Source: Shigella phage Sf22
Sequence record: MF158045
DNA length: 64,000 nucleotides
Direction: 5' to 3' (one strand)
Part shown: piece after piece, positions 7,209 through 35,196 of the stretch
Position numbering within the stretch: position 1 is the stretch's first letter
Layout: every line of letters begins with the position of its first letter
Notes under the pieces: generated by a model
Told to the model about the DNA's origin: nothing
The model's input: only the letters and a program-made list of their open reading frames with translations
Databases searched by the model: none
Translations under genes and position numbers: made by a program

Positions 7209-7216
7209 AATAAATA
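7209..7216 (+). promoter_or_regulatory. Possible late-promoter-like box (AATAAATA) upstream of t
   Basis: One mismatch to TATAAATA, about 19 nt before the t ATG. Confidence 0.3.
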
Positions 7217-16309: not shown

Positions 16310-18487
16310 TTAGGCCGCAAGGGCCTTCATAGTTTTGGCGATTTGGGAAACTTCATCATCACTTAAAGAGTTGCGATATCCGATGAAGTCGGAAACAATA
16401 CGGAATTTCTTGGTAAACTCAGCAACCATTTTATCACTATTTTTTGAAGCATTACGTGATAATTCATCAAAAAGATTAGTTACCGTCCAGATGTCATGAC
16501 CGATGGTATCTTTTCCACCATTAAAATATACACCACGCAATGAACTAACTATATTAGCGAGTCGTGTATATTCTTCAGAAACTTCATCTGTACTGAAGTA
16601 CTTCATCATAAAATCTAGTTCAGGATACTTGATAATTTTATCAATATATCGTTGAGCTGAACTTGAATAACCTACGTACTTATCATAATCTACATCATCA
16701 AAAGCATCTACATATAAATCACGCAAAGCTTCAAAAATACATTGGCACTGACCGAGTTCTTTTACCTTTTTCTGTAAAAGCGGACGAATAACATAAAATT
16801 CATTAATGCCAATAAGATTAGCCATACGAATCAAAATATTCATAGATGGATGACAAAGAGATGTAGTACCATCCATAGAGAAAATATCAGAACGATGCAT
16901 ATACGCTACATACCCAGTAATTTCATCTGCTTCTGATGTGAGCGTAAATAATTCCTCTTTTTCCCAGCGCCCGTCTTTAATTTCAAACTTAAATGCTGTA
17001 GCAGCTTTAGGACGAGGAGCTTTACTTTTAACTATCTTTGGAATATAGCTTTTAACTAAAGCTTCAATTTCTGACAAATAATGAATGTTAACTTCATCAC
17101 TTTCAAACATCGCCATAATATCAGGAAGCAAATCAATCTGCGATTCTACTTCTGGATTAATAAACAGAAGGCGTTCGTTGTGATGAATATTCAAAGTGTT
17201 ATTAAATTCACTATCATCTAGCGCATGTGCTAATCCACGGACAATATTAACACGATTTTTAATATTATCAATAACGATATTAATTTTTGTTGTATTAATA
17301 CCAAACAGACGATAACTTGACGCAACGGCTGATGTTTCATGACTTTGCTTAATGCGTTTCAGTCGAGGGTCAAGATTTACTTCATACACAACTCCTGCAT
17401 TGCATAACTTACTGTCAGGTTCAAACATGCTCTGCATCTTTTTATATGACAGATTTTTAGTCGTGAATTTGACTGAATTACTAATCATATAATCTCGAGC
17501 AGAATACCCCATCTTCATTAATTCGCGATATGCGTGACGAGGAGATGTAGATTCTTTAAATCGTTTTACATCTTCATTAAATGCTTTCTCACTGAGTTCT
17601 TTAACTCGTTCAATGATATTTTTACGAGTGCGATCATCTAGTGAAAGAGCCTCGCGAGATGGAGCAATATCAAGTGAACCCATTGGAAACTTAATGTAAT
17701 TCACTTCATTGCGAATGCTTAGCCAGTTACGGTCTCTAATAACACCATCGATAGGATAAACAATACCGCCATAGATAGCATATAATCCACCACGATCAGG
17801 CCAGTATCTTTCTGGATTTACACCATAATAATCATCAAAATCAGGAAAATAATCAATTTCGCGGTCAAGACCATTAATGATAGCCAAATCTTTGAACGGT
17901 CGCATGATATAAGAAACTTCATAAGCAAAGTTTCTAAAGTCTTTTTCTTCAACTGGAACTACGATTTCAATACCAGTTTTATCATCTGGACCCATTTCTT
18001 TTACGAATGTAGGTTTAATCTGTGGGCCATCACCATCCATGTAAGCTACATAACCACGAATTTCACCTTTATGATACGAAGTAATACTAAACGTATCAGT
18101 ATAACTAAACGGAGATTTAGAACCTAAACCAAATCCGCCAATAAAGTCATTAGATTCAGCCTTAGATGAACTGAAGTATGAATTATACAGCCCAGGAGAA
18201 TTATCATCACCCTGAATATCAAAATCACTCATACCCGGACCAAAATCTCGACAAACAAATCGTGGATCTAATCGTCCTGGAACTTGAATGATAAATTTTT
18301 CAGGATTTCCATTAAGTGCATGAGCATCAATCATGTTAGTAATCAATTCACGGACTACTGCGCGAATCTTGTTTGTATACAAATCAGATGACAGAATTTT
18401 AAATACTTTAGGATTTGCTGCGATGCTAAATGCTTTTGATTTAGAACCATTGCCAAGAATTGTTTCTTTTTCAGTGGTGATAATCAT
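16310..18487 (-). CDS. rIIA: rIIA protein
   Basis: 725 aa (T4 rIIA 725 aa); ATPase-like N-terminal region; synteny. Confidence 0.9.
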
Positions 18488-32037: not shown

Positions 32038-32228
32038 TTTGAATGCTCTATAATTAATTTTAAAGCTTCTTCACTGACAAAAATTTCGTCAGGACCTTCT
32101 ATAACTTCAACCATACGAAGTTGATTAGTTAAGAGCTCACATACGAGCTCCTTGTTATAATCTTTAAATAGCTGGTCAATACGTTTCTTGTGGGCTTTCT
32201 TAAGCTGGCGTTTATTTAAACGAGCCAT
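32034..32228 (-). CDS. Hypothetical protein (64 aa)
   Basis: ORF track; stop/start overlaps on both sides. Confidence 0.45.
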   Translation of the reverse strand: MARLNKRQLKKAHKKRIDQLFKDYNKELVCELLTNQLRMVEVIEGPDEIFVSEEALKLIIEHSK

Positions 32229-32746
32229 TAATAACCTCGGTCTTGACGAGCGAAGTTTTCAGCATTTTTCAGATAATAAAGTTTAAAGATTTCTTCAGCC
32301 GTAAGACCGAGACCTTGGAACATGTTCAGAACGAAATGAAGAATATCAATCATTTCGAATTTAATTTCCAACTGGTCTTGTGGAGACAAATCAGTAATTA
32401 AAGTTTCACGACGTTCACCATGTTGAGCTTTCCAAGGCTTCCATACAGCAGATGCATCTTTTTCGCCATTGCTCATACCACCAAGAGAAGTCAATAGTTC
32501 GCGGAATTCATCATCAATATAATCTTTCTGATTACGCAGCCAATCAACAACTTCACCCGCAGTAGCCAAATCATCAGGATGACGGTTATATTCAGGTTTA
32601 TCTTTAGCTAAACGAACCTGAAGAGATTTCTGCATATCAAGCATAACTTGCAGCGGGTCTTTTTCATCACCGAGAATATCCCAGTATTCATTTTGAGCTT
32701 TATCAGCGCCTTCAATCAGTTGTGAACATTCATTAAAGTATGCCAT
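32228..32746 (-). CDS. 56: dCTP pyrophosphatase gp56 (MazG-like)
   Basis: Internal start MAYFNECSQLIEG gives 172 aa (T4 gp56 171 aa); the ORF-track 5-prime extension is unlikely. Confidence 0.8.
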   Translation of the reverse strand: MAYFNECSQLIEGADKAQNEYWDILGDEKDPLQVMLDMQKSLQVRLAKDKPEYNRHPDDLATAGEVVDWLRNQKDYIDDEFRELLTSLGGMSNGEKDASAVWKPWKAQHGERRETLITDLSPQDQLEIKFEMIDILHFVLNMFQGLGLTAEEIFKLYYLKNAENFARQDRGY

Positions 32747-32817
32747 TATTTTTCCTTTCAATTCATGGGTTAGTAGATTAATTATACAATAAATATATAA
32801 AGCAATAAGGAGGACAT

Positions 32818-33018
32818 ATGGTACAAAAATTAATGGCACTTGTTAATGCCATAAAAGGTAATAAAAAACGTATAGCTTTTACTATTTCTGCTATGGTAGG
32901 AATTTTACTCTGGAACTTTATTCTATCACCTGTTGCAATTGCGCATGGTATTAATATTCCAGTAGTTACTCTTGATACATTTGTAGATTTAGCATTTGCT
33001 TTAGTTGGGTTGATTTAA
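32818..33018 (+). CDS. Small membrane protein (66 aa) on plus strand
   Basis: Strong SD AAGGAGG 6 nt before ATG; two predicted hydrophobic helices; only plus-strand ORF with a good RBS in the early region. Confidence 0.5.
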   Translation: MVQKLMALVNAIKGNKKRIAFTISAMVGILLWNFILSPVAIAHGINIPVVTLDTFVDLAFALVGLI

Positions 33019-34043
33019 ATCTTAGCATATTTAGATAGCCGCATTTTAGCCATCAACCCTTGGGCAATATTATTTTTCATATATTCCATAATTTGTTTAG
33101 GGGTTGCACCTTCCTTTCTAATCATATCATTGACATCTTTTGATTTCCAGGGAGATTTATCCCAAAACATAACCCTTTCTCCTGCATCAACTAATTTAGT
33201 CATTCGCTTAATAGTGTCAGGATGACGAGGTTCATTATCTAAAACCCACACACGTCTATCTTTAAATGGAACAACTTCTAGGTCTAATTGACCACCCGTA
33301 ATAGCTATACCATTTTCAATAAAAAGTGAATCTATAGGTCCTTCTAGAACATATACATCACCATCTTTAACTCGTTCGACTCCATAGATTTTTGTTGCTT
33401 CAGGATAAGCTTTGATGGTGATATATTTTTGAGGAGCATCTTTCTTTAATGCACGTCCTTGAAAAGACTCAGCTTTTCCATTAGCATTATAAATTGGAAT
33501 AACAAGACGAGGCTCAGAAATTTCCTTTTTGTATGTTCCTGGTGCTATGCTATTAACTAATTTAGGCCATTCGGTTGTAAACCAAAGATATTTCCATTTA
33601 TCCTTTGGAATACAACGAGCTTTTACATATTTTATAATTGCATGGTCTTCCGCCAGTTTATCTAATCGAACACATGACGGAAGAGATTTAATTATTTTCT
33701 TCTCAGGTTGTTTAGGAAGTTCTTTAGGTTTTTCTACTGGACGACTTTTACCTTTTTCTTTTCTTATTTCAAAGATATACTCACGATATAAATCAGGTTC
33801 AAACTCCTTTAAATATATTCCGATTGGTGCATGATAGTTACAGTTATAACAATGAATATTTCCTTCATTATTATCACCATAATACCATCCACGAGCTTTA
33901 TTCTGGTCGGTTTTTGAATCTCCACAAACAGGACATCTAAACCGTAATTTAAAAGTTGAACTATTATTTACTTGTGTGAATTTAGGTAAATGAGCTAATG
34001 CACGGTATGCAAACTCATTATCAATCCAAGGTATTGATGACAT
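33015..34043 (-). CDS. 61: DNA primase gp61
   Basis: 342 aa (T4 gp61 342 aa); N-terminal zinc ribbon CPVCGDS...CYNCNYH. Confidence 0.9.
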   Translation of the reverse strand: MSSIPWIDNEFAYRALAHLPKFTQVNNSSTFKLRFRCPVCGDSKTDQNKARGWYYGDNNEGNIHCYNCNYHAPIGIYLKEFEPDLYREYIFEIRKEKGKSRPVEKPKELPKQPEKKIIKSLPSCVRLDKLAEDHAIIKYVKARCIPKDKWKYLWFTTEWPKLVNSIAPGTYKKEISEPRLVIPIYNANGKAESFQGRALKKDAPQKYITIKAYPEATKIYGVERVKDGDVYVLEGPIDSLFIENGIAITGGQLDLEVVPFKDRRVWVLDNEPRHPDTIKRMTKLVDAGERVMFWDKSPWKSKDVNDMIRKEGATPKQIMEYMKNNIAQGLMAKMRLSKYAKI

Positions 34044-34046
34044 TTT

Positions 34047-34211
34047 TACTCTTCTTTTTCTTTAGATTCCTCTTTTTTCTTTTTAGGAATCTGCTCAGGG
34101 CCTTTATTTACTACAGCGCCTGACGTTGTTCCAGTAGAGATATTTTCAGGATTACCACCTGAATCTCCAGCGACCATATCTTCTTTAATAAATTCTTTAT
34201 ATGTTTTCATA
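34047..34211 (-). CDS. Small hypothetical protein (54 aa), Lys/Glu-rich C-terminus
   Basis: Manual translation MKTYKEFIKEDMVAGDSGGNPENISTG... Confidence 0.35.
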
Positions 34212-34256
34212 TTAACCTCTATTCATAAAAGCATTAAAAATTTGGTCATCAATAGA
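34211..34256. repeat. 46-bp direct repeat, copy 1 (3-prime end of 61.1-like ORF)
   Basis: ATTAACCTCTATTCATAAAAGCATTAAAAATTTGGTCATCAATAGA, one mismatch to the copy at 34569-34614. Confidence 0.9.
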
Positions 34257-34568
34257 TGGAATAGCAACCTTTTCGGCATCATTTAGCAAATCATTAATTT
34301 CATCAGATAGCATAACACATGTGCCTTTATTTCCTGTAATTGTTACTGCACAATTACGAACGTTTTCTTTATCAAATTTTAGGTTAATATTTTCGTAGTG
34401 AAAATCCTTTAATGCCGAATATATCTTTAAAATGAAATTGTCTTTTACTACAATAAACCCAACTTCACTATTAAAACGTGGTTCATGGAAACTGTAATAA
34501 ACCTTTTCATCTATAAAATCGTATGAAATTTTTTCCATTTTTAAATATGAAAATTCAGAACTATACAT
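34212..34568 (-). CDS. Hypothetical protein (118 aa), 61.1-like
   Basis: ORF track; C-terminus SIDDQIFNAFMNRG shared with the next ORF. Confidence 0.5.
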   Translation of the reverse strand: MYSSEFSYLKMEKISYDFIDEKVYYSFHEPRFNSEVGFIVVKDNFILKIYSALKDFHYENINLKFDKENVRNCAVTITGNKGTCVMLSDEINDLLNDAEKVAIPSIDDQIFNAFMNRG

Positions 34569-34614
34569 ATTAACCTTTATTCATAAAAGCATTAAAAATT
34601 TGGTCATCAATAGA
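34569..34614. repeat. 46-bp direct repeat, copy 2 (3-prime end of 61.2-like ORF)
   Basis: Near-identical to 34211-34256. Confidence 0.9.
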
Positions 34615-35196
34615 AACATTTACTTTAGACTGTTTTTCAGATGGCAATTCATATCCACATATTACAATTTTATGATCAATATTAAAATACACAGAAGCAA
34701 TATGATTAATGATATTTTCAGTGAAGTCTAAATCGACATCAATATCTTTTTGACCAAAGCCCAAAGGATAAATAATGCGAGTAATTCGATTATCTTTAAC
34801 AAAGATTCCACCGACATACTCTGTACTGCGTTTAAAGTCTACACGCCGACGAAATGAAAAATATTCAGGCTCTCTATGAGCTCGGCTCATAGGACACAAC
34901 GAGTAACTAGAATAAGAGATGTCAAATCCTACACCTTCGATATGAGCCAAAGTGTTATGATTAAACCAATTATAATCGTACGCCAAATCCATTAGATTAT
35001 AATATGTAAAAGGCACCGGATTAACATCATTAGTCACAAGCATGTAATTAGCAACTGCTATAATTTCATTGTTTTTAACGAATACAAACCGTGATTGATG
35101 CGAATGACCTGGACCCGCGTTTTCACGATTAATGATATAACACTGGGCACCTTTATATTTGTATGTATCTTTGCACTTGTGCATTTGATAGAGCAT
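34570..35196 (-). CDS. Hypothetical protein (208 aa), 61.2-like
   Basis: ORF track; C-terminus SIDDQIFNAFMNKG shared with the previous ORF. Confidence 0.55.
   Translation of the reverse strand: MLYQMHKCKDTYKYKGAQCYIINRENAGPGHSHQSRFVFVKNNEIIAVANYMLVTNDVNPVPFTYYNLMDLAYDYNWFNHNTLAHIEGVGFDISYSSYSLCPMSRAHREPEYFSFRRRVDFKRSTEYVGGIFVKDNRITRIIYPLGFGQKDIDVDLDFTENIINHIASVYFNIDHKIVICGYELPSEKQSKVNVSIDDQIFNAFMNKG

Follow-up and report, generated by a model that had tools for sequence, protein, structure and literature searches.

The stretch of DNA analysed here, referred to as the window, comprises 64,000 nt of Shigella phage Sf22 (MF158045), a close relative of T4 within the genus Tequatrovirus. Gene 56, which encodes dCTPase/dUTPase and was identified from its open reading frame, its translation and the annotation of its equivalent in PP925840.1, occupies positions 32228..32746 on the minus strand, and gene 61, which encodes DNA primase and shares 97.8% nucleotide identity with T4 by blastn, occupies positions 33015..34043 on the same strand, with its stop codon at 33015..33017. 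The gap between the gene 56 start and the gene 61 stop measures 268 bp (32747-33014), in agreement with the roughly 270 bp given in an earlier account of this DNA that was made from the letters alone (hereafter, the sequence-only reading). Because the real ATG of gene 56 lies at 32746..32744 (-), read as CAT at 32744-32746, we rejected a GTG-started version of this gene that reaches 32839 and is an artefact of the mechanical ORF list. On the plus strand, the interval holds a 66-aa ORF at 32818..33018, with similarity to T4 dam.1 and phrog_2024, whose ATG follows by 4 nt a Shine-Dalgarno sequence, AAGGAGG, at 32807..32813 (+); this is the near-perfect site that had already been noticed. The start codons of gene 56 and dam.1 are 71 bp apart. 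At its other end, dam.1 converges on gene 61, and the stops of the two genes overlap within the palindrome ATTTAAAT (33013..33020), with the TAA of dam.1 at 33016-33018 and the TAA of gene 61 at 33017..33015.

Gene 56 itself is a diverged, non-T4 allele, with 77% nucleotide identity to T4 gene 56 by blastn, against 96-98% DNA identity to T4 for the genes that flank it, and segF is absent after gene 56 in the window. The allele is of the SegF-sensitive type known from T2 x T4 marker exclusion. Between gene 56 and soc, the segment 31828-32228 contains two small ORFs (64 and 69 aa) that are apparently soc.1/soc.2-like. Beyond gene 61, adjacent ORFs of 118 and 208 aa at 34212-35196 (-) both end in ...SIDDQIFNAFMN(R/K)G, and the pair looks like a partial gene 61.2 duplication, comparable to the RB32 product annotated as 'similar to gp61.2'.

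Directly upstream of gene 56, the minus strand carries a predicted MotA-dependent middle promoter (32781..32807, -), whose T4 homologue is P56/69, the promoter of the oriA primer. Its elements are a MotA box, TATTGCTTTA (32807..32798), a spacer of 11 nt, and a -10 element, TATAAT, at 32786..32781, with a predicted start near 32774. A MotA box has the published consensus (a/t)(a/t)(a/t)TGCTTtA and lies 12+/-1 bp from a -10 element TAtaaT (PMC2988021), and both the box and the spacing in the window fit this description. In T4, the start site of P56/69 has been placed at 16813, reading away from gene 61, and this position is found exactly 7 nt beyond the homologous TATAAT in the direction of transcription; the resulting transcript is annotated in T4 as the oriA primer RNA. 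By analogy, we infer that the element would act as the middle promoter of gene 56 in this phage as well. A search of Rfam with positions 32500-33300 returned only a sub-threshold, chance snoRNA match.

At 35% GC, a given frame stays open for 66 codons by chance with p of about 0.008, and the protein is encoded in 691 phage records according to tblastn, 501 of them at an identity of at least 90% and 190 below 60%. Residues 2-66 of the 66-aa protein match phrog_2024 with an E-value of 1.4e-31. Among ten Tequatrovirus alleles, pairwise dN/dS values range from 0.09 to 0.29, a signature of purifying selection, and variable sites are distributed 9/3/15 over the three codon positions. In Mosigvirus (RB69ORF029w type) and Gaprivervirus, orthologues about 50% identical occupy the same position, clockwise between genes 56 and 61; across genera, 25 residues are invariant and the only indel is one codon long. 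The overlap with the gene 61 stop recurs in T4, T6, RB32 and the Mosigvirus orthologues; VR26 carries two tandem paralogues of dam.1, the second of which overlaps the gene 61 stop. This paralogue pair is found at 2495-2901 of locus L010 in VR26 (Gaprivervirus) and at about 2495-2900 of locus L011 in TH40, where the second paralogue appears to be interrupted by stops or a frameshift. Given the conserved frame, the low dN/dS and the cross-genus orthologues, sequence comparison indicates that the plus-strand ORF is a genuine protein-coding gene, as the sequence-only reading had supposed, and that it is the orthologue of T4 dam.1, RB69ORF029w, RB32ORF030w and phrog_2024.

The alternative to a coding role is that the ORF is untranslated and that only a regulatory role of the DNA keeps the interval conserved, the frame being incidental. 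Candidates for such a function can be named, namely the end of the gene 61 transcript, the dam/56 promoters and oriA, and the interval does contain the middle promoter described above, although the promoter elements are confined to 32774-32807, outside the ORF. A terminator-like minus-strand hairpin lies inside the ORF at 32852..32833, but it is kept only within Tequatrovirus and not in Mosigvirus or Gaprivervirus. That many spurious short ORFs arise in AT-rich genomes, and that this one is unannotated in the T4 reference record, would also fit an incidental frame, whereas the low dN/dS with its excess of third-position changes, and the conservation of amino acids across genera at about 50% identity, where the indel stays in frame and the length is kept, are difficult to reconcile with it. 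We regard the regulatory-DNA explanation as very improbable. The hairpin itself consists of ATGGCATTAACAAGTGCCAT followed by TAATTTTTGT on the minus strand (32833-32852), within codons 6-12 of dam.1; from the gene 61 stop it is about 165 nt downstream. It looked like a possible terminator of gene 61, but as it is unconserved outside Tequatrovirus, we did not include it in the feature.

The gene is already catalogued and is widely annotated as a hypothetical protein, and it is missing from RefSeq T4. The T4 protein is 98.5% identical to that of the window (65/66 residues), and its coding sequence lies at 17738-17938 of NC_000866.4 (locus L002 3239-3439), between the dam start and the gene 61 stop, where this record has no CDS for dam.1. 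Other records do include it: dam.1 is annotated in T4T, HM137666.1 (ADJ39749.1), and in another recent T4 assembly, the UniRef entry 'Uncharacterized protein dam.1' shares its 90% cluster with the window protein, RB32 lists it as RB32ORF030w, 'similar to RB69ORF029w', and PP925840.1 annotates the counterpart as a CDS, as do most modern records. In T6 (AP018814.1, locus L012 2501), ATA replaces the ATG of dam.1 and annotation of the CDS begins at Met6; in this phage, codons 1-5 may thus be dispensable, or the gene may be weakened. In the same T6 record, product names look shifted or wrong: gp56, for instance, is called 'ferredoxin', and small ORFs near soc are called 'terminase'. Our search of the literature on T4 ribosome profiling, start-site maps, proteomics and functional genomics found nothing on dam.1 in any phage.

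Hydropathy and structural modeling make a small inner-membrane protein the most likely product of dam.1. Kyte-Doolittle hydropathy with a 19-residue span peaks at 2.0 (residues 19-41) and 1.86 (residues 47-66), and an AlphaFold2 model built from a 12-sequence alignment (mean pLDDT 79) places helices at residues 2-12, 16-42 and 52-63. One clear transmembrane helix, about residues 16-42, is predicted, and it is preceded by the basic cluster KGNKKR (K13, K16, K17, R18), from which a cytoplasmic N-terminus is predicted. The most conserved stretch is C-terminal, HG..P.V.LDT.VDLAFA..GL, with D53 and D57 invariant. The topology of this second segment is uncertain, because both invariant Asp residues lie in it and the model makes only 12 of its residues helical; the best reading is an acidic, hydrophobic C-terminal helix that would either lie at the periplasmic face or re-enter the membrane. 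Of the two membrane helices proposed at first sight, both are thus recovered as hydrophobic helices, and only the first has a clearly membrane-spanning length.

Database searches placed the protein in a narrow family. Pfam, NCBIfam and PADLOC gave no match to the 66-aa protein, and an exhaustive HMMER profile scan of 1.84 billion representatives returned only 7 proteins, comprising family members, their fragments and chimeras, and one 1,822-aa protein lacking any matched stretch. A word-indexed protein search recovered close relatives only, and an IMG/VR search yielded just 5 loci. When the model was compared with viral models using Foldseek, all matches had E-values of at least 2 beyond the close relatives and two weak matches, which correspond to a probable Karamvirus homologue (33% identity, E 0.09) and a 63-aa entry (E 0.16).

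One homologue, from OE5505, is labelled 'Holin' in UniRef and BFVD, which raises the question of whether dam.1 encodes a holin or another lysis protein. A small, hydrophobic and probably late protein would suit this role. The label, however, is an automatic name carried by a single one of hundreds of 'hypothetical protein' entries, and matches to the folds of characterised holins are non-significant, with E-values above 7. In addition, a T-type holin is already encoded by gene t of this phage at about 7235, with a late promoter at 7209, its spanins and antiholins are encoded elsewhere, and dam.1 adjoins no lysis gene. We consider a holin or lysis function highly unlikely, and the 'Holin' and 'head morphogenesis' labels on single homologue entries were set aside as annotation noise. 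With low confidence, we suggest that the protein could be a non-essential late accessory of the envelope or of lysis timing.

In T4, dam (780 bp) sits between genes 56 and 61, as the sequence-only reading had stated. That account also noted that no dam-like gene is present here, and our searches with T4 Dam (NP_049647) bear this out: tblastn found no homologue in the 64-kb window (best E 0.65) or in the complete 167-kb genome PP925840.1 (best E 0.96), which is locally the closest complete genome, being 99.7% identical over the interval and about 96-97% over the remaining window. Its further statement that T4 carries gene 69 in the same interval finds no support in the current annotation of NC_000866.4, where dam alone lies between genes 56 and 61. 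Gene 69 presumably denotes what is now the segF region, across gene 56 from this interval. The 899 bp that T4 has in addition (dam and its upstream region) correspond to positions 32787..32806 of the window, 20 nt left unaligned to T4 by BLAST between two blocks of homology (L001 1570-2088 = 32265-32786 and L001 2988-4439 = 32807-34256); by eye, the homology with the gene 56 side of T4 extends to the MotA box (...aagcaat).

When the interval was compared across related phages, the dam-less state proved widespread and dam.1 was kept. The dam-less junction is matched contiguously in 318 phage records, Dam is found at an identity of at least 90% in about 182, and together these amount to roughly the 501 records with a close dam.1. 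Phages without dam in the 56-61 slot include T6 and RB32, which resemble the window arrangement, PP01, SYGD1, F26, and the Mosigvirus and Gaprivervirus relatives. SYGD1 and F26 have segF without dam, so that segF and dam are independent traits. It could be argued that a missing dam marks a biologically unusual phage, for instance one with an unmethylated genome and a different strategy of restriction evasion, as neither the window nor the nearest complete genome holds a Dam-like gene. Yet the excess of dam-less junctions over Dam-bearing records (about 318 against about 182) shows that absence is the norm, and its occurrence in T6, RB32, PP01, SYGD1, F26, Mosigvirus and Gaprivervirus makes such singularity quite unlikely. 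Judging from these records, the absence of dam is a common presence/absence polymorphism and the majority state among close T4 relatives. We also rejected the idea that dam.1 fills the space of dam, since T4 itself has dam.1 beside dam; dam.1 is therefore no replacement, and it stays behind when dam is missing.

A third state of the slot was observed in the Tequatrovirus genome IMGVR_UViG_2974787500_000001 (locus L007 1062-2401), where dam is accompanied by a translationally coupled 186-aa gene located just upstream, with its stop overlapping the dam start. The 186-aa gene belongs to phrog_8706 and has a weak, sub-threshold Pfam match to the restriction endonuclease DpnII (E 0.0045, 16.8 bits vs a cut-off of 23), and the sequence match suggests that the pair may be a GATC restriction-modification system in a T-even phage. 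The 56-61 slot can thus be described as a small variable cargo site that is empty, holds dam, or holds dam together with a faintly DpnII-like 186-aa protein.

The sequence-only reading had stated that a gene on the opposite strand would need its own promoter, which our analysis supports; the neighbouring early and middle genes all lie on the strand opposite to dam.1. It had found no clearly identifiable promoter. On this second point our analysis differs, as a candidate is present at 32788..32795 (+): the sequence AATAAATA, a predicted gp55-type late promoter box with A at -13, a predicted start near 32801, and a distance of 22 nt to the dam.1 ATG, has an equivalent in every lineage examined. 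Late promoters of T4 have the consensus TATAAATA at -13 to -6 and no -35 element; among the 50 listed for T4, 32 are perfect and nine have A(-13), the commonest variant, and T(-13) is poorly conserved in the late promoters of related phages (PMC1524935). The box upstream of dam.1 is never a perfect TATAAATA in the lineages examined, where the base at -13 is A, G or C, a point that speaks against the assignment; the form in the window, with A(-13), is the commonest accepted variant.

Conservation of the box was evaluated in five differently arranged lineages, in which nATAAATA occurs 16-22 nt upstream of the dam.1 ATG within flanks that are otherwise unalignable. The window type has AATAAATA at 22 nt, the T4 type GATAAATA at 21 nt, Mosigvirus AATAAATA at 21 nt, and Gaprivervirus (VR26 and TH40) CATAAATA at 16 nt. 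With respect to the opposite promoter, the box lies inside the spacer in the window; Mosigvirus and VR26 have it past the MotA box, and in T4 a distance of 0.9 kb separates the two. The box thus tracks dam.1 and not gene 56, because its position relative to the opposite promoter varies and the homologous spacer of T4 is boxless. The motif is also rare: the 64-kb, 35%-GC window contains just 12 copies of ATAAATA on its two strands together, and four copies besides this one precede a Shine-Dalgarno sequence and ATG, at genes 36, t, soc and 49. These four genes we take to be known T4 late transcription units. Perfect TATAAATA sites are depleted in the window, with 3 seen against 10.6+/-2.6 expected from shuffles, which is consistent with selection against stray late promoters; two of the three precede the late genes 36 (1989, +) and soc (31849, -).

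The orientation of the gene points in the same direction. T4 early and middle transcripts are all counter-clockwise, and in PP925840.1 the first 157 CDSs, which span 75.7 kb, include a single one on the plus strand, the dam.1 counterpart. For a clockwise gene in a counter-clockwise early/middle block, a late promoter is the only known route of expression, and the clockwise polarity accordingly fits late transcription alone. The other sole clockwise CDSs of the early region are two tiny ORFs between denB and rIIB, at 165727-166098 of PP925840.1 (L022). Based on the spacing of the box, its variable placement and its rarity in the window, we consider the late-promoter assignment fairly strong, and AATAAATA at 32788-32795 is probably a variant T4 late promoter of dam.1.

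A real gene could nevertheless be driven otherwise, by a sigma-70-type promoter, by read-through from a distant clockwise late unit, or at another time of infection. The departure of the box from the consensus at -13 in every lineage leaves some room for this. In opposition to it, a consensus scan for sigma-70 sites detected none on the plus strand upstream of dam.1, the promoter/terminator scan remaining at chance level, no clockwise genes exist for tens of kb upstream from which transcription could read through, the distance from box to ATG is fixed in non-homologous contexts, and T4 early and middle transcription is exclusively counter-clockwise. Expression by such other means is, in our view, unlikely, and the late promoter remains the preferred source of the dam.1 transcript.

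In the window, the predicted late box of dam.1 is wholly enclosed by the spacer of the opposite-strand promoter of gene 56, and the dam.1 Shine-Dalgarno sequence abuts the MotA box. This nesting results from the absence of the 0.9-kb dam cassette, which in T4 stands between the two promoters. Downstream, a terminator scan found no plus-strand terminator-like site within 1.3 kb after dam.1, and the dam.1 transcript therefore probably runs antisense into gene 61. It is conceivable, though doubtful, that the nested promoters of dam-less T-even phages act as a temporal switch, in which the late gp55-polymerase would shut off gene 56/oriA, make antisense primase RNA and turn on a late membrane protein.

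Taken together, the locus is probably best explained as a dam-less T-even arrangement that contains the dam.1 orthologue, a late-expressed small membrane protein. According to this model, dam.1 would be transcribed late by the gp55/gp33/gp45-modified RNA polymerase from AATAAATA, and the resulting leader of about 17 nt would carry the strong Shine-Dalgarno sequence. The protein would have a basic amphipathic N-terminal helix facing the cytoplasm, one transmembrane helix, and then the conserved acidic, hydrophobic C-terminal helix (LDTxVDLAFAxxGL). Its gene is conserved in T-even-type phages, where it always stands tail-to-tail with gene 61, the stops overlapping.

What this analysis adds is the late-promoter assignment, the layout of a promoter within a promoter, and the omission of the gene from RefSeq T4; in other respects, the finding is accurate but ordinary. 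The late-promoter assignment would make dam.1 the lone clockwise late gene in a block of roughly 75 kb of early and middle genes. Since NC_000866.4 lacks dam.1, screens built on its annotation, such as knock-down libraries aimed at every annotated coding sequence, may miss the gene. Dam-less T-even phages should lack phage-directed GATC methylation, which is relevant to the choice of restriction and defence assays. Beyond annotation hygiene, the importance of these results is small, given that the gene is already annotated in RB69, RB32, T4T and hundreds of newer genomes and the dam polymorphism is visible in public records.

Compared with known systems, the middle promoter of the window resembles T4 P56/69 in that its MotA box and -10 element are homologous, collinear and directly upstream of gene 56, and differs from it in the length of the spacer, 11 nt in the window against 13 in T4, and in its content, as the window spacer carries the reverse complement of the late box and the T4 spacer (catactcaaatga, minus strand) does not. 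The predicted late unit is similar to that of the holin gene t in the same window, where AATAAATA is likewise followed by about 20 nt with AAGGAGG and by ATG, in the same clockwise orientation; the gene t box is at 7209, 18 nt from its ATG, and the dam.1 box at 32788, 22 nt from its own. Unlike t, which ends a clockwise late tail-fibre operon, dam.1 is isolated in a counter-clockwise block and converges on primase. With T4 Dam, a GATC adenine-N6 methyltransferase, the locus has only the genomic slot in common, the gene being absent from the window and from PP925840.1. The closest counterpart is T4 dam.1, which agrees with the window gene in length, strand, overlap with the gene 61 stop, Shine-Dalgarno sequence and distance from nATAAATA to ATG; in T4, however, the dam cassette stands between dam.1 and gene 56 and the box is GATAAATA, whereas in the window the box is AATAAATA and lies in the spacer of the opposite promoter.
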